Positions 4,401-56,509 of a stretch of DNA of 64,000 bases are shown here, piece by piece (position 1 is the first letter of the stretch; every line of letters begins with the position of its first letter). Origin of the DNA: a virus; the UHGV virus genome UHGV-1373641; one strand, given 5' to 3'. The translations under genes and the position numbers were made by a program. The notes under the pieces were generated by a model, which did not search any database, was not told the DNA's origin, and saw nothing but the letters and a program-made list of their open reading frames with translations.

Positions 4401-6670
4401 CCTTGCTTCCAGTTATTTGTCCACGTAGTAATGCCGGGAAAATCGATTTCTTGAATATCCGTAGCATTGTTTTTATCAAATCCGTCCGCATAGCAAAAAT
4501 CCTCCGATTGCAAGAAATTATTTTCACTATTAACAAATTTGATTCTAAGAGCATGAGGGACGTTAGGAAAAAGTTTCTCCATGCTGAATCCCCAACTATT
4601 ACGCTGGTTGAATTGCTGCACAGGAGTTTTATTCTTATCGTCAATCACCACACCATATTTTCCATCTATTTCTGTGGTTACGGAAGCACGCGCTGCCGCA
4701 GCGATCTGAGTAAGACGTGACCACAGATTCTCTTCTGTATCACAAACAAAATCGAAAGTCCACCCCATTCGGGTACAATACTTATGAAACTCACGTAGCG
4801 TTGGTTCGTCAAGCTTGTCTTCCGTATAAGGAGAATTTAAAGCATGACGGGATGTCAATACATACCTATAAGCAGATGCAGGATTTCTCGTCTCCCTCCA
4901 TTCCCACGTATTATTGCTAGTATTAAAGTCTGGAATCAGTGCCGTGCAAATAGCATTAAAGTTATCGACGTATCCAGAAAGCTGTTCCGATGCCTGAATA
5001 CGCAATTCAGAAACACATACGGGAACAGGAGTTGAAAAAGATTGACGATTTACAATAGCCCTTTTCGTCGCCCACGTAGCTTCATCATAGATATACTTAT
5101 TTGAATTATCATCAGTAAGTCTTCGAATACGAACATCATAATCTCCGTGAGGAACATTCACAGTATAGGTACGGGTCAAGGGCTTTAATTGCTGTCCAGT
5201 GATGGCAAATTTGTTAATGCCATTCACATATTGGTCAGGAATGACAATTTCATAAGTCGAATAATCATAAACTTCGACGCAAGTATAACTCCAATAAGGA
5301 CTACCTAATCCATATCCGCATTTTTTCGTATAATGTTTTACTTCATTAATATACGGAGCGGCACCGGACACAGAACTTACCCGCAAGTCTTCGCAAGTAT
5401 ATGAATATGTATATGTTACCCGCTGTCTTCCATCATCATCAAATTCATAATGAGGAGTTGATACAAGAATAACTTTTGCTAATGGAACGGTATTAACTGG
5501 AGCTGTTTCTCCATCAGCCATATTGATATTACCAGAAAAATCACTATAGACAATAGAGTTTCTTCCGGCGTTTAAATAAAAGCCAGTTTTTCTTTTAAGC
5601 TCGATAGATGTCCCACGAATAGGGAATGACCCTCCGACAAGTCCTTTCCATACCGTATCATTCTTTAATTTATATTCAGCTTCAAACTCAACGGTACGAT
5701 CATAGTTATCTCCATTTTTCTCATTGATGGAAGTCAGCCCTTTGGAGAATGTGATGTCTAAGCTGATTGTATCGCATTCTCCCATTGTCCGAGTAATATA
5801 TCCAGCTTCTTTCGAGATTAAAGTCCCCACGGTTTCTTCATTAAAGGATTTGCCAAAATAGACAAGCCCTTCACCAGTGGTAGAAGGATGGAATCTGTGG
5901 TCAATATTTTTAAAGTTTTCTAAAGGCGTATCCCCAATTTTAAAATCTCTTACGGACATATCTGGGTGCCCCCAGATAACGCACATATTGAAATAGGTTT
6001 TATCCGATTCAATATTCGTCCAAGATTTCGCTGCCAAAGGAGGAGTGACCTTATTCCTTCCGAAGATAAGAGGAACAAAACCATATGGGTTCGCTCCGTT
6101 TCTTGCCCCGGAAATAGAATAGGTAGGAGATTCTTTTTCGGAAGATTTAGGTCCGCTAAGTTTAGGCGTTGCAGGAGGGCAAAGCATATTGACAGCGAGT
6201 GAGCCAACCGTTAAGATACCAAAACTTACTGCGGCACCAGTCCAAGTCAAGGCTCCCGCCGCTGTCATCAACCCCCATGAAGCCGGAGCAAGTACGGGCA
6301 CTGCGATAGCAGCGACAGCTACAACAATGTTAAGGATTGTAGCAAAAGGATTTTTACCGCCACCTTTACCGGGCTTAATGAAAAATTCGACACGCTGACC
6401 ATCCGCAGGATAAGTAACAGCCCATTTTTCTTTAGGGATATTGATAAAATCCACACGGCAAACACAATGCTTCTTTAGATATTCGGCATATGCGGGAGTA
6501 ATAGCTTGGTTAGCCCGAAGAATTTTTACGGAGTCTGTGATGATGTTTTCAAGGGATTGTCCTTCTTGGACTGTGAGCGAGACACGAGACGAACTTGCCC
6601 AATGCCGACCAAGAACTGTGATTTCCCCTCTTTTACGAGAGGCTCGCTTTTTCATTGCTTTACCGCGCAT
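1427..6670 (-). CDS. Host specificity / central tail fibre protein (lambda gpI-gpJ-like fusion) with repeated FN3/Ig-like beta domains
   Basis: 1747 aa. N-terminal region has a gpI-like hydrophobic segment (AVAAIAVPVLAPASWGL). The middle is a long beta-rich region with repeated ~90-aa modules. Position is immediately after the NlpC/P60 K-like protein, in lambda tail tip order M-L-K-I-J. Confidence 0.8.
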   Translation of the reverse strand: MRGKAMKKRASRKRGEITVLGRHWASSSRVSLTVQEGQSLENIITDSVKILRANQAITPAYAEYLKKHCVCRVDFINIPKEKWAVTYPADGQRVEFFIKPGKGGGKNPFATILNIVVAVAAIAVPVLAPASWGLMTAAGALTWTGAAVSFGILTVGSLAVNMLCPPATPKLSGPKSSEKESPTYSISGARNGANPYGFVPLIFGRNKVTPPLAAKSWTNIESDKTYFNMCVIWGHPDMSVRDFKIGDTPLENFKNIDHRFHPSTTGEGLVYFGKSFNEETVGTLISKEAGYITRTMGECDTISLDITFSKGLTSINEKNGDNYDRTVEFEAEYKLKNDTVWKGLVGGSFPIRGTSIELKRKTGFYLNAGRNSIVYSDFSGNINMADGETAPVNTVPLAKVILVSTPHYEFDDDGRQRVTYTYSYTCEDLRVSSVSGAAPYINEVKHYTKKCGYGLGSPYWSYTCVEVYDYSTYEIVIPDQYVNGINKFAITGQQLKPLTRTYTVNVPHGDYDVRIRRLTDDNSNKYIYDEATWATKRAIVNRQSFSTPVPVCVSELRIQASEQLSGYVDNFNAICTALIPDFNTSNNTWEWRETRNPASAYRYVLTSRHALNSPYTEDKLDEPTLREFHKYCTRMGWTFDFVCDTEENLWSRLTQIAAAARASVTTEIDGKYGVVIDDKNKTPVQQFNQRNSWGFSMEKLFPNVPHALRIKFVNSENNFLQSEDFCYADGFDKNNATDIQEIDFPGITTWTNNWKQGRYHLASQLLRPLSVTINADWEHRMCHRGDVIEIFHDVLMNTFGAARVVGLIYQDTEGTEYIIYENSERPIDTPAVGVVLDDSIVFSERDVIYGIAIRNPYGKTVTYQIQPQFGEEHSHIYFTFAITYATTPYIGDLASVSLMGEANDKYLVTQIAPAENSSAEIKAIPYSPEVLDADKGEIPPWNPPIIIDKLPTYTIPNPTITQIISDESMLVKIGQNIIPQVGIWFKVGDGTSLDCVVYARAKKTQEAAWGNTVRTSVSEGYVVISNMESGELYDLSIQVTDPVRGISSDWITQTGYFVIGKTAPPPDVDGVTAELLPPSGVKISWNPVATLDIDYYAVQGDITGKTIDTSIILPVPNKFGTLNMTVSAVDTLGNFSLNPAPVSVTIQKPKNPVIKTEVTIDGLKLSWTDCTTSWPIKNYEVHDEYMSRTEFSNVTSIYVSPRPVGRYKFTVKAIDIFGNESNAVPTFIEVDLLGRVQPTARIDGADILLEWPITPSAFPIDEFEIVEGDFTPVGRAKVNYFRVPAGAVGFHEWKIRARDIVGNYGDWGEVSIEIKAAAAPTVKATIQEDKILISWVAPSTINLPITEYEIENSTTGESFGRINATQIVVPPEKTGNHIFRVRSWDTGGNAGAWGQTSFRVEAPGRVYITPTVIDNNALLVWTEPSTVFFPIHHYEVLRGDELEYAELIFNVNALIVNIFEAVSGNYTYWVVPVDVAGNKGAASPITCVISQPPDYVLFYDWDSVFSGTRHNFILDGVGGMIGPIVNENETWAQNIARFGGTTAASTWKNKVDIAGPTWMEPAGSEGWYQEEFDYGQIMQSIRLVVTPTIQVLSGTPLYSIKIEYKIDKSDPWELATENATQVFLQRFRYIRFTLSMLPGSKGLIRVSELNLKFDVKIRNDSGVALAEANTNGPEWPENKDDTGNLVNFSMPFLDIWEVTAAPESEDAGLVALVSFQDIPSPKFFRVSLFNNKGVRTTGNVVWKAVGI

Positions 6671-29527: not shown

Positions 29528-32458
29528 TTATTTTCTATAAAATTCTCCCCTCCATCCTTCGGCCTTTACTGGCAGACCTTCCGCCCATTGAGGAAGCTTG
29601 CACATGATATTTTCAAATTCCTCGACAGACCCAAACCCTTTAGGAACCTCAGCAATGATTTCATCGTGAACATGAAACACTACCGGATAGTTGGCTTCTT
29701 CGAGATTGAACATCGCATTCACCATCAGATCTCTACAGAAAGCTTGTGTAACATTTTCTGAAAGTATGAGATGGTTAAGCGGCCTTCTCACAAATTGTTT
29801 TTCTGGCGTCAAGGTCATCGCCGTAACAAGCTTCTTGAACGCTGGCTTTTCTGGAGTAGACCATGCCATCTCCACATCTTCAAGTTTAGGCTCGAAGTAG
29901 AAGAGGAACCTGCCACTAGGGAGCTTCATAAGGAGGAATCTCTTATAGTATTGGAATGATACTCCACGATAAGAATAAATTCCGCCCTTATTCGTCATAG
30001 CCATGACAGCAGCTTCAACGAGTTTGTGCCAAAGCTTAACCGTCATTGGGTGCCCGTCTCTCCATGCAGCAATAATCTTCTTTCCTTCCTCTTCATCAAT
30101 GCCCATTCTATCAGCTCCAAAGCGAAGGAACGCGCCATAACCACCTCCGTATCCACAGTTATGCACAATGCGTGGACCGCAGGATGTATGTATCATAAAC
30201 CTGCTTTTATCTCCACAATTCAAAAGATCATAAACTTTTTCTATTTTAGTATAACCATCTCTATTAGATAAAATGCTCCCAGTAAGAATAATTTCATCGC
30301 TATCATCTTTTTTGATAAACTTTAAAATCGCCATATTTATTTTATTATAGTCCTTAATAACGGCTTCACTCACTTTAATATTCAGATAATTTTGAGCTGT
30401 TGAATACTTAGAAAAAATCGTAGCTAAAAAGACGATAATGGAGCATACATATTTAACTTTATCTTCAAGACTCGTGTTCCTTAAGCTTTCACCCAAGTAT
30501 ACATAAACACCTTTTCTACTTTTAGAATCAACAAAGGATACATTAAAGTCATCTTCGTCAAAATCGGAAAGAATTACTTCAATTCCCATTTCAGCTATAG
30601 TTACTTTTACTGGGTATTTCTTCAAACTATAAATAATTTTATCTTGAACTTTTGAGATTTGATAACTAACCCAACTAGAGAATATTTGATATTGCTCGCT
30701 AGAATAAACTTTCCCATCTCCTAGCCATTTACACAATTCAATAGCTGCATCGGAGTCTATCCAAATATTTTCATCCATCAACCATTTTTGATCAGGCGTA
30801 GATTCTACTCCCAAAAAATTAACGATTTCTTTAATACCTTGGCAATATGCTCCATCTGTCAAACACCAGTTTTCTCCATCCCATACATAATCATCTTTAG
30901 TTATGTCGACGATTTTTTTTATTCCATAGCTCGTATAAACCATTGTATCCGCAGAGAAGCAAGCCAACGTAGCCGTCTTACCTACTTGACGCTGCTTCTT
31001 ATCCACATCTTCATATTTCACCCCATAGATAGTCGTAGCTGCAACTTTATACGGGTCGAGGCCATCCCTAAAACCTTGAAGAACATACTCTTCGCCAGCG
31101 AGATATGCCAATGCTCGGGCTTCAATCCCACTATAGTCGGCACAGATAAAATCGTATCCTTTTCTAGCGTGAATCATTGCGCGAAGGCAATCGGAGGCAA
31201 GGACTTTAGGGTCTTTCCAATACTGCTGGATAAGATCTAAATCCCCGCTAGCTGCAAGTTCGATATCCATTTCACTGATATCATAATTATCCAAAGGCTT
31301 GGAACCTTCGGGTATATTCATATTATTTGTTGAAGGTCTAGTCAAATTTTGCGGTTGAATAAGAGCACCAGCAAATCTTCCCGTAGAGGCTCCATGATAT
31401 ATCATCGTTCCATGCGCCCTGCCATCATAGCACGAAGTACAAAGCATGGTCTGATATTTTGCCGTAGAAGACATGGCAATAGTCTGACGAATCTCAAGGA
31501 ATCTACGAACATCGGAGGGGAGATCAGTCCGTTCAAGAAGGTCGGAGATAGCTTGCTTGCTTGCCGAATCAGTATCAACCCCACGAGATTGAAGCCATTC
31601 AATAATAGACTTGGAAGACTTCATGGTAGATACAGCACCATACGTAATCTCGGAAGCTTCCTCCGTCAAAATATCTTCTACTTTATTAACCATATCCATA
31701 ATTTTGACCGCGTGAAACCTGTCAATTCCTACTCCACGGTCATTGATCGTCTGGTCGAGCCGCCACACTTTAAGCTCCCGCTCAGGGATAGGAGGAAGCT
31801 CCATAAAAAGAACTTCTTCCGCAACCACGTCCTGTCGACAATATTCAACATATCGTTTAAACATTGGCTCGTCACAAGGATAGACAATATATTGATGGTA
31901 GTTTTTAATGGTAGGAATGCCACCTTTTGAAAGCACGGCATAGACGTACTCTTGAGTAGCCTTAGCCTTTTCGGGGTCTGGAAATGCGGAAAGTTCGGCT
32001 TTACGGAATTTCCTAGGCTTTGACATTTTCATCATCAGCTTATGCCCTTCATTATCCTTCTGAGGAGCGTCTTTTCGCCAAACCTTTACCGCTTGTTCCA
32101 GTTTACGGGGAAGGTTGCACATAAGGGCCTGAGACATCGTGCATCGAATTTTCTCTAATGGCAATGGCTTAAACCAGAGAGGCTCCATCTTGAACTTCCA
32201 AATGGCTCTTTCGAAAGGGGCGTTATGTGCTGCAATCTCTTCACAATTATTAATAATATCCTGCAATTCATCGTCGCTCAATTCAGTATCAAGAAAATGC
32301 CTATATGCCGGAGCTACCCATACACGAGCCTCCTGTCCACATATACGGACGGCAAGCATCATCACCTCAGTATCAGGGTGCGCAGCATATGCGTAAGCTC
32401 CACAGGTTTTAATATCTACAGGGGACCTCGTTTCAAAGTCAATTACGGATTTCATCAT
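29528..32458 (-). CDS. Family A DNA polymerase with N-terminal DnaQ-like 3'-5' exonuclease, interrupted by an intein
   Basis: Exo I IDFETRS. Motif A CADYSGIEARALAYLAGE. Motif B RQVGKTATLA / CGYGGGYG split by a 268-aa insert. C-terminal HVHDEI motif C. Confidence 0.85.
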   Translation of the reverse strand: MMKSVIDFETRSPVDIKTCGAYAYAAHPDTEVMMLAVRICGQEARVWVAPAYRHFLDTELSDDELQDIINNCEEIAAHNAPFERAIWKFKMEPLWFKPLPLEKIRCTMSQALMCNLPRKLEQAVKVWRKDAPQKDNEGHKLMMKMSKPRKFRKAELSAFPDPEKAKATQEYVYAVLSKGGIPTIKNYHQYIVYPCDEPMFKRYVEYCRQDVVAEEVLFMELPPIPERELKVWRLDQTINDRGVGIDRFHAVKIMDMVNKVEDILTEEASEITYGAVSTMKSSKSIIEWLQSRGVDTDSASKQAISDLLERTDLPSDVRRFLEIRQTIAMSSTAKYQTMLCTSCYDGRAHGTMIYHGASTGRFAGALIQPQNLTRPSTNNMNIPEGSKPLDNYDISEMDIELAASGDLDLIQQYWKDPKVLASDCLRAMIHARKGYDFICADYSGIEARALAYLAGEEYVLQGFRDGLDPYKVAATTIYGVKYEDVDKKQRQVGKTATLACFSADTMVYTSYGIKKIVDITKDDYVWDGENWCLTDGAYCQGIKEIVNFLGVESTPDQKWLMDENIWIDSDAAIELCKWLGDGKVYSSEQYQIFSSWVSYQISKVQDKIIYSLKKYPVKVTIAEMGIEVILSDFDEDDFNVSFVDSKSRKGVYVYLGESLRNTSLEDKVKYVCSIIVFLATIFSKYSTAQNYLNIKVSEAVIKDYNKINMAILKFIKKDDSDEIILTGSILSNRDGYTKIEKVYDLLNCGDKSRFMIHTSCGPRIVHNCGYGGGYGAFLRFGADRMGIDEEEGKKIIAAWRDGHPMTVKLWHKLVEAAVMAMTNKGGIYSYRGVSFQYYKRFLLMKLPSGRFLFYFEPKLEDVEMAWSTPEKPAFKKLVTAMTLTPEKQFVRRPLNHLILSENVTQAFCRDLMVNAMFNLEEANYPVVFHVHDEIIAEVPKGFGSVEEFENIMCKLPQWAEGLPVKAEGWRGEFYRK
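30158..30961 (-). mobile_element. Intein inside polymerase motif B
   Basis: Block A CFSADTMVYT. Terminal IVHN followed by Cys. Internal LCKWLGDG resembles a single degenerate LAGLIDADG motif. Excision restores KTATLACGYGGGYG. Confidence 0.7.
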
Positions 32459-53759: not shown

Positions 53760-53849
53760 TGGCGGACAAGGTAGGATTCGAACCCACGGACGCTCCTGCG
53801 CCAACGGTTTTCAAGACCGCCCCAATAAGCCTGACTCTGGCACCTGTCC
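53760..53849 (-). tRNA. tRNA-Ser (anticodon UGA), class II with long variable arm
   Basis: Cloverleaf folds. Anticodon arm CGGTCTTGAAAACCG. TTCGAAT T-loop. CCA encoded. Confidence 0.8.
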
Positions 53850-53864
53850 TGTTTTTAATTCTTC

Positions 53865-53941
53865 TGGCTGTGGGAGACGGGATTGAACCGCCAACACCTT
53901 GATTAACAGTCAAGTGTTCTACCAAACTGAACTATCCCACA
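53865..53941 (-). tRNA. tRNA-Asn (anticodon GUU)
   Basis: Cloverleaf folds. Anticodon loop CTGTTAA. CCA encoded. Confidence 0.8.
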
Positions 53942-53950
53942 ATATTTTTT

Positions 53951-54027
53951 GGTACTACCGATGGGATTCGAACCCAATACTGTAGGGTTTTTAAGACCCT
54001 TGCCTCTACCTGTTGGGCTACGATAGT
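53951..54027 (-). tRNA. tRNA with anticodon UAA (Leu by anticodon) but short class I variable loop
   Basis: Acceptor ACTATCG/CGGTAGT. Anticodon arm AGGGT-CTTAAAA-ACCCT. Variable loop only ~5-6 nt. CCA encoded. Confidence 0.6.
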
Positions 54028-54031
54028 ATGA

Positions 54032-54107
54032 TGGTAGACCCGATAGGACTCGAACCTATAACTTCCCGGTTATGAGCCGGATCTTCTGCCAATTGAAGTA
54101 CGAGTCC
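54032..54107 (-). tRNA. tRNA-Met or Ile2 (anticodon CAU)
   Basis: Cloverleaf folds. Anticodon loop CTCATAA. CCA encoded. Confidence 0.75.
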
Positions 54108-54244
54108 ATTAAAAATTTTGATTATGGGAGACGCAATAAAGGAGGAAATTGCGTCTCCCGATTCGAGGAGCAAACGTATGAATGAATTGATGGAAACCTT
54201 ATACTAAACTTAAATCAGAATGTCAAGAACTTTTTTAATAGTTT

Positions 54245-54511
54245 TTAAGGTCGTTCGATCATACTGGGAACAAGTGTTGCGGAATAAATGATTTTTTCTT
54301 CATCCGGGCCATCCTCGTTCTCAACGAAGGCTTCAAATTCGATCTTACTGACACTAAAAAGGACAGTAATAGCGTCAATCTTGTCGCCTTTCTTAAAATC
54401 GCCAATATCCATGTTCAAAGTGCAATCATAAAACACAAAGTCGAAAGTGTCAAGCTGATCCCAACCTTCACAAGAAAACATTCTTTCAAAGAAATCAGTG
54501 CTCGTGTCCAT
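54245..54511 (-). CDS. Small acidic hypothetical protein embedded in the tRNA cluster
   Basis: 88-aa ORF. Confidence 0.3.
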   Translation of the reverse strand: MDTSTDFFERMFSCEGWDQLDTFDFVFYDCTLNMDIGDFKKGDKIDAITVLFSVSKIEFEAFVENEDGPDEEKIIYSATLVPSMIERP

Positions 54512-54537
54512 CTATGGATCTCCTTTTTATAGATTTA

Positions 54538-54614
54538 TGGTGCGACCGATGGGGCTTGAACCCATAACTTGCCAATTAAAAGTCGGCTACTCTTGCCAAT
54601 TGAGTTACGGTCGC
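54538..54614 (-). tRNA. tRNA-Lys (anticodon UUU)
   Basis: Acceptor GCGACCG/CGGTCGC. Anticodon loop CTTTTAA. CCA encoded. Confidence 0.8.
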
Positions 54615-54619
54615 ATGGA

Positions 54620-54688
54620 GTGTGGGAAGCGGGATTGAACCGCCAACATATACCTTTGTATTGTTCTACCAAATTGAACTACCCCACA
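54620..54688 (-). ncRNA. tRNA-like element (Asn-tRNA-related acceptor, D and T arms) with the anticodon arm replaced by a 12-nt mini-hairpin; candidate Y-RNA-like tRNA mimic or tRNA pseudogene
   Basis: Acceptor TGTGGGG/TCCCACA. D arm GTTC-AATTTGGTA-GAAC. T arm GGCGG-TTCAATC-CCGCT. Anticodon region is ATACAAAGGTAT (4-bp stem, 4-nt loop). No encoded CCA. Lies 10 nt 3' of the Ro60-like gene on the same strand. Confidence 0.5.
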
Positions 54689-54701
54689 CACACATCAATT
54701 T

Positions 54702-56222
54702 TTATCTGATACGAGCATACCTTTCCGAGCCAAGGATGTCAAGCATAACTTCGATAGGTTTTTTGTTTTGTACTGCCATCTTGAACGCAGAAGGCGACAG
54801 ACCGGAAACTATCGTTGCTCCCACCTCATCTTTCTGGACAGGAAGATTTCTTCCTCGACTATTCACATTCCAGAATACGATGGTAGGCAGCGAGTATCCA
54901 TGTGCTCGGAAAGATTCTTTCATGTATTCAAAAGCTGTCTTCGAATAGTCCGTAGATTCATTAAACTCCATATCGGAAATGATATACAGAGTTTCCGGAA
55001 GGTCTTCTTGCTTCAATTTATGCCTCATGGCGGTGGAGAGAATCAAAGAAAACACAGCTTCAATGTTCGTGCCATAGCCCCAATTGGCGGAAACCATGTT
55101 CGAGAGTTTTTCTCGCATCGTATTTCCGTAGATTTTTACAAGCTCCGGTTCGGTACTGAAAGTAAAGAAATGGTCTTTGAACGGGCCTTTGCTTCTTTCA
55201 GCGAAATACAATCCAAGAGAAATAGCCACGTCAAGAGCCGTGACACTTGAAGATTTGGATACTCGGGACAGCATAGAGCCACTGGTATCTACTACGCAAA
55301 TAGCATTTTTGTTTCGACCAGTATAGTCCGGCAACGCTCTCCACATTTCATCGTAGATATCTTCATATTCCTCTCCGTCCCGCTGAACACCATAAACAAT
55401 GTCGTAGGGGTAAAGAACGCTCGAATTTACCTTTTTCTTGCCGCGTTTAACAGCTTCGGTATATTCTGAAAAACCAAAAGGGTCATTTCTTGTAAATGCC
55501 TTTGTGTGTTTCATCAAAGCATAGGAAGGGAGCTTGCTATAATCAATGTCGCTCCATTTTTTCGAGCACATTTCCTGTTCGACAATATTCAGATGCTTTC
55601 GGATATTTACGATGGTCTTGCGGCATTTCTTCTCGTTCCCATCGAAAATATCGTCCACAAGTTTCTTTGCGAGGTTTTTTCTCCATTGAGAGGACACACT
55701 GTTCTTTAGCGGAAACCATTTCGCGCAAAGAGTCAGATTTTCGTAATGTCCGAGATTGATTTTACCTTCATCGAGGTCGAGAATCGTTTTCACGAAATTA
55801 ACCATAAAATCATATATGGATTCGTTACTCGGATAGATAGCCTCCATAATCCAGAAAAAATCATCCCATCTGCCATATTTGGGGATTTGTCCGATGTTAT
55901 AGATGATATCGTTTCGGTCGTCAGTATAACCGTTTTTGATAATATCATACAACATACAGACCCTAAAAATGTCCCTTTCACCCTGTCCGCCGCGAACATC
56001 ACGCAGATAGAAGAGGTTTTTCCTTGCCAAACTCTTATTTTCTTCTAATGCTTCCTCAAAAAGCTCCTTCGCGGAATTGAGGGAGTCTCGTTTAGCGGAG
56101 GCCAATGCGAAAAAGTTCAGATTGGCATTATCGGAATCAGAATAGGTAAGGCATCCGTTTTCCGTAACAGAATTAAGATTTTTGTTAAATGCCGAAATAA
56201 AAGGCGAAATTTTCGTACTCAT
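54702..56222 (-). CDS. Ro60/TROVE-like protein with C-terminal vWA domain (DUF2828-like)
   Basis: 506 aa. MIDAS VVDTSGSMLSRVSKSSSVTALDVAISLGLYF and later TLYIISDMEFNES align from memory with human Ro60 AVDVSASMNQRVLGS... and DVFIVFTDNET. N-terminal ~300 aa helical (TROVE-like). Confidence 0.5.
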   Translation of the reverse strand: MSTKISPFISAFNKNLNSVTENGCLTYSDSDNANLNFFALASAKRDSLNSAKELFEEALEENKSLARKNLFYLRDVRGGQGERDIFRVCMLYDIIKNGYTDDRNDIIYNIGQIPKYGRWDDFFWIMEAIYPSNESIYDFMVNFVKTILDLDEGKINLGHYENLTLCAKWFPLKNSVSSQWRKNLAKKLVDDIFDGNEKKCRKTIVNIRKHLNIVEQEMCSKKWSDIDYSKLPSYALMKHTKAFTRNDPFGFSEYTEAVKRGKKKVNSSVLYPYDIVYGVQRDGEEYEDIYDEMWRALPDYTGRNKNAICVVDTSGSMLSRVSKSSSVTALDVAISLGLYFAERSKGPFKDHFFTFSTEPELVKIYGNTMREKLSNMVSANWGYGTNIEAVFSLILSTAMRHKLKQEDLPETLYIISDMEFNESTDYSKTAFEYMKESFRAHGYSLPTIVFWNVNSRGRNLPVQKDEVGATIVSGLSPSAFKMAVQNKKPIEVMLDILGSERYARIR

Positions 56223-56480
56223 AATTTTTTCTCCAAGGTTCTGCGTCCTTTGGGGACGCTACTTCCAGTATGAATGTTGTGTTGTTGCTGTGAGAACCTT
56301 TATTTAAATAACTAGGTGCTTTTACATTATTGCTTAACAGGCAAGTGTAATTTTTGTTGCTGTGAGCACCTAAATGATTATGAGCTGTGTATGAGTTTTA
56401 ACTAGATGCCGTTTTAAATAATCATAGTATTTAACTTTAATATGCTGTCTGCATCTGCTCATTCGCTCATCGTGAAAAGG

Positions 56481-56509
56481 AATATAGTTAAACTTTTTTG
56501 ATTTGTCAA
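56481..56509 (-). promoter_or_regulatory. Sigma70-like promoter driving the Ro60-like gene and the tRNA cluster, with ~250-nt structured leader
   Basis: Minus strand TTGACA (plus 56504..56509) - 17 - TATATT (plus 56481..56486). Confidence 0.4.

Follow-up and report, generated by a model that had tools for sequence, protein, structure and literature searches.

A tRNA-shaped element without an anticodon loop beside a Ro60-like gene in an uncultured tailed phage

Introduction

YrlA (Rfam RF02553) is a tRNA-mimicking Y RNA encoded beside bacterial Ro60. Its tRNA-like domain has no anticodon loop (bioRxiv 10.1101/312249), and RNase P cleaves the YrlA of Mycobacterium smegmatis, which also receives CCA (PMC4201824). 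Here, we describe an element of related anatomy in a 64,000-nucleotide stretch of DNA from the virus genome UHGV-1373641, referred to below as the window. The element lies on the minus strand, 13 nucleotides (nt) past the stop codon of a gene for a Ro60-like protein of 506 amino acids (aa), and is a tRNA body in which a minimal hairpin replaces the anticodon arm. The account that we favor, and hold tentatively, is that it is a non-decoding tRNA mimic, excised by tRNA-processing enzymes, that provides this phage's Ro60/Y-RNA-like system with its tRNA-like module. The locus links two open questions, what the tRNA-like domain does in bacterial Y RNAs and for what reason tRNA arrays occur in phages.

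Like YrlA, the element adjoins a Ro60-fold gene on the same strand, at 13 nt within the distance of about 4 kilobases (kb) taken as proximity for that family, and it has a tRNA-like D arm, T arm and acceptor stem, the nucleotides for tertiary contacts, and no anticodon loop. YrlA, however, is circularly permuted, with a closed acceptor stem and with its 5' and 3' ends in a Ro-binding stem that carries the motif GNCGAAN0-1G, whereas in the element the acceptor stem is open and carries CCA, the mini arm is closed and a Ro-binding motif is absent. The neighboring protein also differs from the partner of YrlA in being of the DUF2828 type, TROVE-like only at the level of the fold.

Three other systems invite comparison. 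The tRNA-like domain of tmRNA has an acceptor stem, a T arm, an analog of the D loop and no anticodon arm, and is processed by RNase P; it differs in being charged with alanine (G3.U70), in depending on SmpB and in carrying a reading frame, none of which applies to the element. The mascRNA at the 3' end of MALAT1 serves as a cleavage signal and receives CCA. Both mascRNA and the plant mitochondrial t-elements (PMC1920247) resemble the element as cloverleaves with a reduced anticodon arm that end a longer transcript and act there as RNase P/Z signals, but they are eukaryotic or organellar and of unrelated descent, and the element directly precedes a real tRNA within a Ro60-like system. The Yrl1 and Yrl2 RNAs of the Thermus phage phiLo, which also accompany a Ro60 (PMC12135203), are stem-bulge-stem Y RNAs with a CGAA motif and are not tRNA-shaped; their binding was shown experimentally.

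Structure of the tRNA-like element

The element and its parts are as follows.

54616..54689, minus strand: tRNA-like element in the register with an acceptor stem of 8 base pairs (bp), comprising G-1, positions 1-73 and then U-CCA
54621..54688, minus strand: core of the element in the 7-bp register, matched by the Rfam tRNA model
54663..54679, minus strand: D arm GUUC-AAUUUGGUA-GAAC, from the sequence and the Rfam tRNA model
54650..54661, minus strand: mini 'anticodon' arm AUAC-AAAG-GUAU, which substitutes tRNA positions 27-43
54628..54644, minus strand: T arm GGCGG-UUCAAUC-CCGCU, from the sequence and the Rfam tRNA model

Read from 54689 to 54615, the RNA runs G-UGUGGGG-UA-GUUC-AAUUUGGUA-GAAC-A-AUAC-AAAG-GUAU-AUGUU-GGCGG-UUCAAUC-CCGCU-UCCCACA-C-U-CCA-U and is followed by G1 of tRNA-Lys. 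The acceptor stem UGUGGGG/UCCCACA, which includes the pair G7.U66, is joined by U8 and A9 to the D arm; A26 and a variable loop AUGUU complete the body. Positions 54688..54621 match the Rfam tRNA model at 33.8 bits (gathering threshold 29, E=6.8e-5) in an alignment that is complete except for the anticodon loop, where 4 nt stand against nine model positions. The minimum-energy structure computed with RNAfold is a four-armed cloverleaf, and the nucleotides that make the tertiary contacts of a tRNA are all there (U8, A14, G18G19, U54U55C56 and A58). The body thus has what is expected of a canonical tRNA, namely a 7-bp acceptor stem, a D arm and a T arm with a UUC-purine-A loop. A preliminary description of this DNA had given the same anatomy, with an arm of 12 nt made of 4 bp and a 4-nt loop; the sequence, the Rfam score and the predicted fold bear it out at 54621..54688, with the strand corrected to minus.

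The same description had stated that no CCA is encoded. This holds for the 7-bp register, in which C73 is followed by UCC, but G 54689 pairs with C 54620 (G-1:C73), and the 8-bp acceptor stem that results has a U discriminator and a CCA at 54618..54616. ARAGORN draws the element in three relatives in this way, with an 8-bp acceptor stem and U-CCA. The pair G-1:C73 occurs in every haplotype of the element, whereas the parent tRNA-Asn has U-1 and G73. Directly 5' of the element stands a (TG)n run (54690..54697, minus strand), the source of G-1, which has three to six or more repeats among the contigs.

Relatives were collected as 33 contigs of the same clade (26 distinct sequences) through protein-guided scans, DNA pattern scans and exact look-ups of the 90% cluster of the neighboring protein. 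In all haplotypes of the element the mini arm is a 4-bp stem with a loop of 4 or 5 nt, and in none is there a 5-bp anticodon stem with a 7-nt loop bearing U33 and a purine at position 37. The earlier view that the element cannot decode is thereby upheld, and a decoding tRNA is ruled out; the tRNA-Phe(AAA) that ARAGORN reports in three relatives is a forced fold, requiring a 3-bp mismatched stem and C33. In the window, ARAGORN calls the five neighboring tRNAs and, as had been expected, leaves the element uncalled.

In haplotypes with the arm GUAC-CAAAA-GUAC (L001:5534-5609 and L004:2469-2543), the mini-arm sequence UACCAAA perfectly complements the D-loop sequence UUUGGUA, and the minimum-energy fold pairs the mini arm with the D loop, beating the cloverleaf by 1.8-1.9 kcal/mol. 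This complementarity is interrupted in the haplotype of the window, for which the cloverleaf is the best fold.

Descent from tRNA-Asn and conservation

Two tRNA genes of the same array are needed for what follows.

53865..53941, minus strand: tRNA-Asn(GUU), the intact paralog of the element (ARAGORN and Rfam)
54538..54614, minus strand: tRNA-Lys(UUU), beginning 1 nt past the CCA of the element (ARAGORN and Rfam)

Alignment confirms the likeness to tRNA-Asn that had been noted at the outset: apart from the anticodon arm, the element and the phage tRNA-Asn (53941..53865) share about 90% identity, which makes the element a paralog of that tRNA. The segment exchanged is exactly positions 27-43. 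Although the arm had been described as deleted, and is indeed shortened, it is a replacement rather than a plain deletion, with a stem (AUAC/GUAU) unrelated to that of tRNA-Asn (CUUGA/UCAAG). An origin of the mini-arm sequence was sought elsewhere in the window and none was found. Differences from tRNA-Asn that are fixed in the element throughout the clade are G7, C64/U65 and C73.

The Ro60-like gene is 88-100% identical at the DNA level among the 33 contigs, and the element is present in 32 of them, including the most divergent lineage (L114-L117, 88% identity). The short arm, whose conservation the preliminary description had proposed to check, is conserved in these related phages. Outside the mini arm, only 5 of 57 columns of the element are variable (9%), compared with 189 of 507 third codon positions of the Ro60-like gene (37%; Fisher p=3e-6). 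The mini arm with its two flanking bases varies in 7 of 17 columns (41%; p=0.004 against the remaining element); the corresponding values are 29% for third codon positions of an 88-aa open reading frame (ORF) in the tRNA array and about 31% for spacers. Thus, the neutral evolution of the whole sequence that a pseudogene would show is found in the mini arm and not in the body.

The mini arm exists as two main types, AUAC-AAAG-GUAU and GUAC-CAAAA-GUAC, together with recombinant and point-mutant forms. Its first pair is A-U, G-C or G.U and its fourth C-G or U.G, and there is no haplotype with an unpaired stem. Substitutions in the stems of the body mostly preserve pairing through G.U, as in the T-stem variants U51.G63 (four contigs), G49.U65 and G50.U64, and the sole common variation of the D arm is A or G at position 15. 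The tRNA body of the element is therefore under purifying selection, the mini arm drifts neutrally and needs only to form a small hairpin, and the element as a whole is dispensable. Pattern scans of IMG/VR and of a metagenome collection for wider relatives returned the same clade only, and blastn against cultured phages gave generic tRNA matches only.

The neighboring Ro60-like protein

54702..56222, minus strand: gene for the Ro60-like protein, 506 aa, with Pfam DUF2828 and DUF7788; its stop codon lies 13 nt upstream of the element

The 506-aa protein also matches PHROG 850, annotated as 'RNA-binding protein'. An AlphaFold2 model was built from 40 homologs (mean predicted local distance difference test score 89.6), and a Foldseek comparison of this model with the PDB placed eleven Ro60/TROVE chains on top (E 6e-9 to 9e-7). 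Since these are the top matches, and since the MIDAS (metal-ion-dependent adhesion site) residues are invariant across the family of the protein, the modeled protein has the Ro60 fold over its full length, with both the HEAT-repeat ring and the vWA domain with its MIDAS that define Ro60/TROVE proteins. At the level of sequence, no likeness to Ro60 or to any solved structure was found: the protein is not matched by Pfam TROVE, and hidden Markov model comparison gave no match to the Ro60 chains.

More than 7000 relatives of the protein occur in the protein collection, and full-length matches are found in 709 cultured phage records, among them Felix O1-like, Listeria, Staphylococcus, Enterococcus, Campylobacter and Vibrio phages and mycobacteriophages, where they are annotated as 'Ro-like RNA binding protein', 'vWFA protein' or 'DUF2828'. 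From 46% identity up to the 90%-identity cluster of the window's own protein, no homologs were found. In 80 distant viral loci the gene stands very often inside tRNA arrays of the same strand, and in the Escherichia coli (E. coli) phage momo it directly precedes the tRNA array. We found no paper on the RNA partners of DUF2828 proteins.

An RNA family with a stem and a CAGCAA motif beside Ro60-like genes

When introns are allowed, ARAGORN reports 'intron-containing tRNAs', about 45 in number, 112-127 nt long and with arbitrary anticodons, which cluster just downstream or upstream of the Ro60-like gene in other phages. In these RNAs a shared insert follows the D arm and precedes the anticodon region; its parts are, in order, an A-rich linker, a hairpin of 5-8 bp (often AUCUUG...AAGAU), 1-4 nt and the sequence CAGCAA(U). 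A covariance model of the hairpin and CAGCAA, named R1, was searched over 648 kb on both strands. It gave 123 matches at E<=1, and each of the 123 shares its strand with the Ro60-like gene and directly adjoins that gene, on the upstream or the downstream side; they include untrained loci of cultured phages, such as those of Mycobacterium phage BigCheese and Listeria phage LMTA-94. In all, the motif accompanies the gene at more than 80 distant phage loci. Among 28 full-length RNAs that were chosen irrespective of the hairpin, six of the seven hairpin pairs are kept with changes on both sides, that is, with covariation. Examples of the motif-bearing RNAs, from a set of loci numbered L007-L101, are L029:4738-4850, L028:4850-4963, L100:4276-4388, L099:5152-5277, L097:~5357-5480 and L096:4002-4192.

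Most copies of the motif form part of tRNA-shaped RNAs, and a strict classifier finds 32 that have an open acceptor stem and 10 that are permuted, with a topology like that of YrlA. In the closest outgroups of the window's protein, at loci L099 and L100 (46% protein identity), the tRNA-like part of the Rfam YrlA model gives sub-threshold matches (34.7 and 32.6 bits), and the order of parts is a stem strand, CAGCAAU, a small hairpin, the T arm, a closed 7-bp acceptor-like stem-loop, the D arm, an A-rich linker and the complementary stem strand. Judged by this order of sequence elements, the predicted RNA is a circular permutation of the 'tRNA with insert'. A permuted RNA stands unannotated in the tRNA array of phage momo, with conservation across more than 230 Felix O1-like records. 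The family corresponds to YrlA in topology, whereas its conserved motif is CAGCAA and not GNCGAAN0-1G.

Many of the forms with an open acceptor retain a canonical 7-nt anticodon loop, of the types Thr UGU, Pro UGG with G37, Arg UCU and Asn GUU. Such a loop follows the insert in L029:4738-4850, L028:4850-4963, L028:5111-5224, L040:4592-4705, L064:2603-2717 and L068:1842-1959, and these RNAs may still decode, or may have the insert removed. In L064, L068 and L085 a single RNA fuses, in this order, the D arm, the hairpin, CAGCAA, an Asn anticodon arm and the T arm.

The family is absent from Rfam 15 and unannotated in the cultured-phage records examined, and no paper on it was found. We regard this link between an RNA family, of which we found no description, and DUF2828-type Ro60-like proteins as a more important result than the element itself. 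It means that a large Ro60-fold family (709 cultured phage records) is flanked by a conserved, unannotated RNA motif that is carried in tRNA bodies of two circularly permuted forms, and the Felix O1-like phages of E. coli offer a tractable system in which to study it. The element is an extreme case, a tRNA body minus the anticodon arm, and as a natural separation-of-function variant it lets one ask what the tRNA-like module does without the Ro-binding motif and without decoding.

Several other RNAs lie near Ro60-like genes in these phages. In Listeria phage LMTA-94, a ROOL-like RNA (L098:1425-1976; 84.4 bits, gathering threshold 99.1) stands in a group of tRNAs some 1 kb upstream of the DUF2828 gene, and a gene for an RtcB-type 'tRNA-splicing ligase' lies 1.3 kb downstream of it. 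At L022:958-1346 (68.6 bits) and L031:736-1148 (86.3 bits) there are phage-encoded tmRNA genes, which share the strand of the Ro60-like gene and lie upstream of it by 1-2 kb. At L020:5164-5457, downstream of the Ro60-like gene, there is a split tRNA-Arg(UCU) whose group I intron matches Rfam Intron_gpI at 53.6 bits. A partial tRNA match without an acceptor stem (L079:2345-2402; 33.4 bits, model positions 8-63) ends the tRNA array upstream of another Ro60-like gene.

The leader of the Ro60-like gene

The window has two copies of the motif, both in the operon of the element.

56481..56509, minus strand: sigma-70-like promoter TTGACA-17-TATATT upstream of the leader, agreeing with the consensus at 11 of 12 positions and recognized by consensus match only
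56347..56422, minus strand: motif copy 1 (R1 28.7 bits, outside the training set), with GCAUCUA at 56409..56403, UAGGUGC at 56372..56366 and CAGCAAC at 56362..56356
56329..56345, minus strand: anticodon stem-loop of tRNA-Asn type, C-UUGC-CUGUUAA-GCAA-U, matched to tRNA-Asn positions 24-43
56275..56332, minus strand: motif copy 2 (R1 30.6 bits), with GCACCUAG at 56319..56312, AAGGUUC at 56300..56294 and CAGCAAC at 56290..56284
56235..56259, minus strand: hairpin GCGUCC-CCAAA-GGACGC followed by GAACCUU, abutting the ribosome-binding site GGAG (56234..56231)

These two copies are the only R1 matches in the window, and both fall in the 320-nt leader between the promoter-like site and the start codon of the Ro60-like gene. 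They carry neither a T arm nor a D arm. The Asn-type hairpin agrees with tRNA-Asn positions 24-43 at 17 of 21 positions and is the best match to tRNA-Asn in the window other than tRNA-Asn itself (the maximum in 20 shuffles was 14-16); its anticodon loop is identical, the pair A31-U39 is changed to C31-G39, and it is invariant among the relatives. The operon therefore holds three derivatives of tRNA-Asn: the intact tRNA, an anticodon hairpin in the leader beside a candidate Ro-binding motif, and the body of the element without an anticodon arm. The leader hairpin beside CAGCAAC is the very part that the element is missing.

The leader also allows alternative pairings. The sequence UUAGGUGC of copy 1 (56373..56366) complements GCACCUAG of copy 2, and their pairing would enclose CAGCAAC and the Asn hairpin; AAGGUUC of copy 2 complements GAACCUU, and this pairing, ending at the ribosome-binding site, would enclose the second CAGCAAC and the hairpin GCGUCC-CCAAA-GGACGC. 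By complementarity, these segments can pair into putative YrlA-like closing stems round each CAGCAAC. Variants of the GCGUCC-CCAAA-GGACGC hairpin in relatives stay paired (U-A to U.G, A-U to G.U), and in the leader variable columns make up 8% of the 3' part and 22% of the 5' part. The structures suggest either autoregulation or Y-RNA-like modules that are cut from the leader. The mini-arm types show no co-variation with leader variants among the relatives, whose haplotypes are recombinant.

Proposed role of the element and alternative explanations

In the account that we favor, the element would be part of one transcript with the Ro60-like gene and tRNA-Lys, started at the leader promoter or at a promoter-like site just upstream of the element:

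54714..54742, minus strand: promoter-like site TTGACA-17-TATGCT, agreeing with the consensus at 10 of 12 positions and recognized by consensus match only, about 25 nt upstream of the element and within the end of the Ro60-like ORF

The host RNase P would then cut the 5' end of the element, and its 3' end would be set when RNase P cleaves at tRNA-Lys and 3' trimming, or RNase Z with CCA addition, then follows. Excision by these enzymes is expected because the full acceptor stem, the elbow of D and T arms and the 3' CCA are kept, and release as a stable RNA is inferred from what is known of tRNA processing together with the precedent of YrlA in M. smegmatis (PMC4201824). This would yield a stable RNA, L-shaped, about 68-74 nt long and without an anticodon. 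It would serve as the tRNA-like module, and the candidate Ro-binding module would be the stem and CAGCAA with the Asn anticodon hairpin, which lie in the leader of that operon; in other phages the two modules are fused in one RNA. The pattern of constraint is compatible with a role that depends on the tRNA shape and not on decoding. The element also shares with the 'stem + CAGCAA' RNAs its genomic niche, strand, tRNA body plan and remodeling at the position of the anticodon arm, but those RNAs have a hairpin and CAGCAA(U) insert and many have a canonical anticodon loop, of which the element has neither. The preliminary description had offered a tRNA mimic or Y-RNA-like module among its possibilities, and the genomic context, with a Ro60-fold gene here and Y-RNA-like RNAs in relatives, agrees with it; the agreement is one of context, not of a motif or of membership in a family.

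A number of observations weigh against this account. R1 finds no stem and CAGCAA motif in the element, and Rfam YrlA gives no match to it at E<=10, so that membership of that family is rejected (the sole YrlA match in the region, at 19.8 bits, spans two adjacent tRNAs). Binding of the element by the Ro60-like protein is putative, and base-pairing of the element or its mini arm with the leader is predicted to be no better than with shuffled sequences. No other short-arm tRNA-like element was found by strict and relaxed descriptor scans of 86 other Ro60-like loci or by Rfam scans of 32 loci, so the element is lineage-specific. It is less conserved than tRNA-Lys, in which 1 of 77 columns is variable. 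It is absent from L122 (L122:2215-2335, contig ERR13966095_33037), where a deletion of 76 nt fuses the (TG)n run to tRNA-Lys and C2 of that tRNA is changed to U (U2.G71); this absence is a secondary loss, since L122 is nested inside the gene tree. Stem-breaking changes occur in two contigs, in the D stem of L003 (G22 to U) and in the T stem of L114 (A51 mismatch). Gene conversion with tRNA-Asn could, moreover, inflate the apparent conservation of the element, although homogenization is incomplete, because the fixed differences (G7, the pairing of C73 with G-1 and the encoded U-CCA) remain.

It is somewhat unlikely, in our estimate, that the element is pure punctuation, that is, a processing signal in cis at which cleavage by RNase P/Z parts tRNA-Lys from the Ro60-like mRNA and sets the 3' end of the latter, the released RNA having no function. 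The layout suits such a signal, with the element 13 nt past the stop codon and 1 nt before tRNA-Lys and no terminator predicted between the gene and the element, and of its parts only the acceptor stem, the T arm and the elbow, which RNase P, RNase Z and the CCA-adding enzyme read, are conserved, the mini arm being free to drift; tRNA-like structures with a reduced anticodon arm do the same elsewhere, as t-elements (PMC1920247). A processing signal, which the preliminary description had also considered, is plausible, but a dedicated one seems largely redundant because cleavage at tRNA-Lys would be equivalent, as in L122, where tRNA-Lys directly follows the gene. Punctuation also leaves unexplained the link to the Ro60-like system and the Asn anticodon hairpin in the leader. 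That the element is instead a relic, a duplicate of tRNA-Asn whose anticodon arm was lost and which is disappearing, its likeness to the parent being kept by occasional gene conversion and not by selection, we consider unlikely. The restriction to one lineage, the loss in L122, the broken stems of L003 and L114 and the neutral rate of the mini arm would all fit decay, and the T stem of L003 (CCGTC) is the same as that of tRNA-Asn, which is compatible with conversion. Against decay stand the retention in 32 of 33 contigs down to the most divergent lineage, a body that varies four-fold less than synonymous sites, a mini arm that stays paired through G-C/A-U exchange, and the persistence of the differences from tRNA-Asn.

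The remaining readings are less probable than either of these. Our preferred module could be one half of a split tRNA-Asn mimic, in which the leader anticodon hairpin with its CAGCAA module and the anticodon-less body released after the gene would both work with the Ro60-like protein; together with the fused RNAs bearing Thr, Pro, Arg and Asn loops in other phages, they would form a Ro60/Y-RNA machine that senses, shields or repairs tRNAs attacked by host anticodon nucleases. We think this extension quite unlikely. A decoy, as also raised in the preliminary description, would be an uncleavable tRNA-Asn body that titrates a host anticodon nuclease of a defense system, or a tRNA-modifying enzyme, and so spares the real phage and host tRNAs. 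The PARIS effector AriB of E. coli targets tRNA Lys(UUU) and Asn(GUU), cutting between positions 40 and 41 after a UAAU motif (PMC12409363). Circumstantially, the phage tRNA set includes both of these targets, the phage tRNA-Asn has U36-A-A-U-C where the leader hairpin has UAAG, and the element offers no anticodon loop to cleave. Against a decoy, the element is tied to no nuclease, titration would demand high expression and L122 has lost the element; we hold this reading to be decidedly improbable. Finally, the pair G-1:C73 is the main identity mark of bacterial tRNA-His, and since every haplotype of the element has this pair and the parent tRNA-Asn lacks it, it might let histidyl-tRNA synthetase charge the mimic for non-ribosomal use. 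The extra U between C73 and the encoded CCA argues against this, as does the position of G-1 within a variable (TG)n run, where it may be accidental, and such charging is highly improbable, close to negligible.

One further oddity of L003 concerns tRNA-Asn. In the same contig as the D-stem mismatch, ARAGORN reports a tRNA-Asn with a two-base anticodon ('tt'), which is a shortened anticodon loop (L003:3381-3456). The oddities of this contig point to either sequencing errors or a decaying lineage.

Genomic context of the window

The window comes from the genome of an uncultured tailed phage (about 85-90 kb) that encodes a portal protein, a major head protein, a DNA polymerase, helicases and an anaerobic ribonucleotide reductase; blastn against cultured phages gave no close cultured relative. 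The five tRNAs called by ARAGORN (Ser UGA, Asn GUU, Leu UAA, Met CAU and Lys UUU) are all encoded by the minus strand, at 53760-54614. ARAGORN finds no tmRNA in the window, and among the window ORFs tested there are no RNA-repair genes (RtcB, ligases, kinases).

The 88-aa ORF between tRNA-Lys and tRNA-Met (54245..54511, minus strand) matches PHROG 4991, has its own ribosome-binding site and is kept in all relatives. The DNA polymerase ORF (29528..32458, minus strand, 976 aa) has its polymerase-family matches in two separated parts, with an endonuclease-family match at residues 735-810, which suggests that it may hold an inserted homing-endonuclease-like or intein-like segment.

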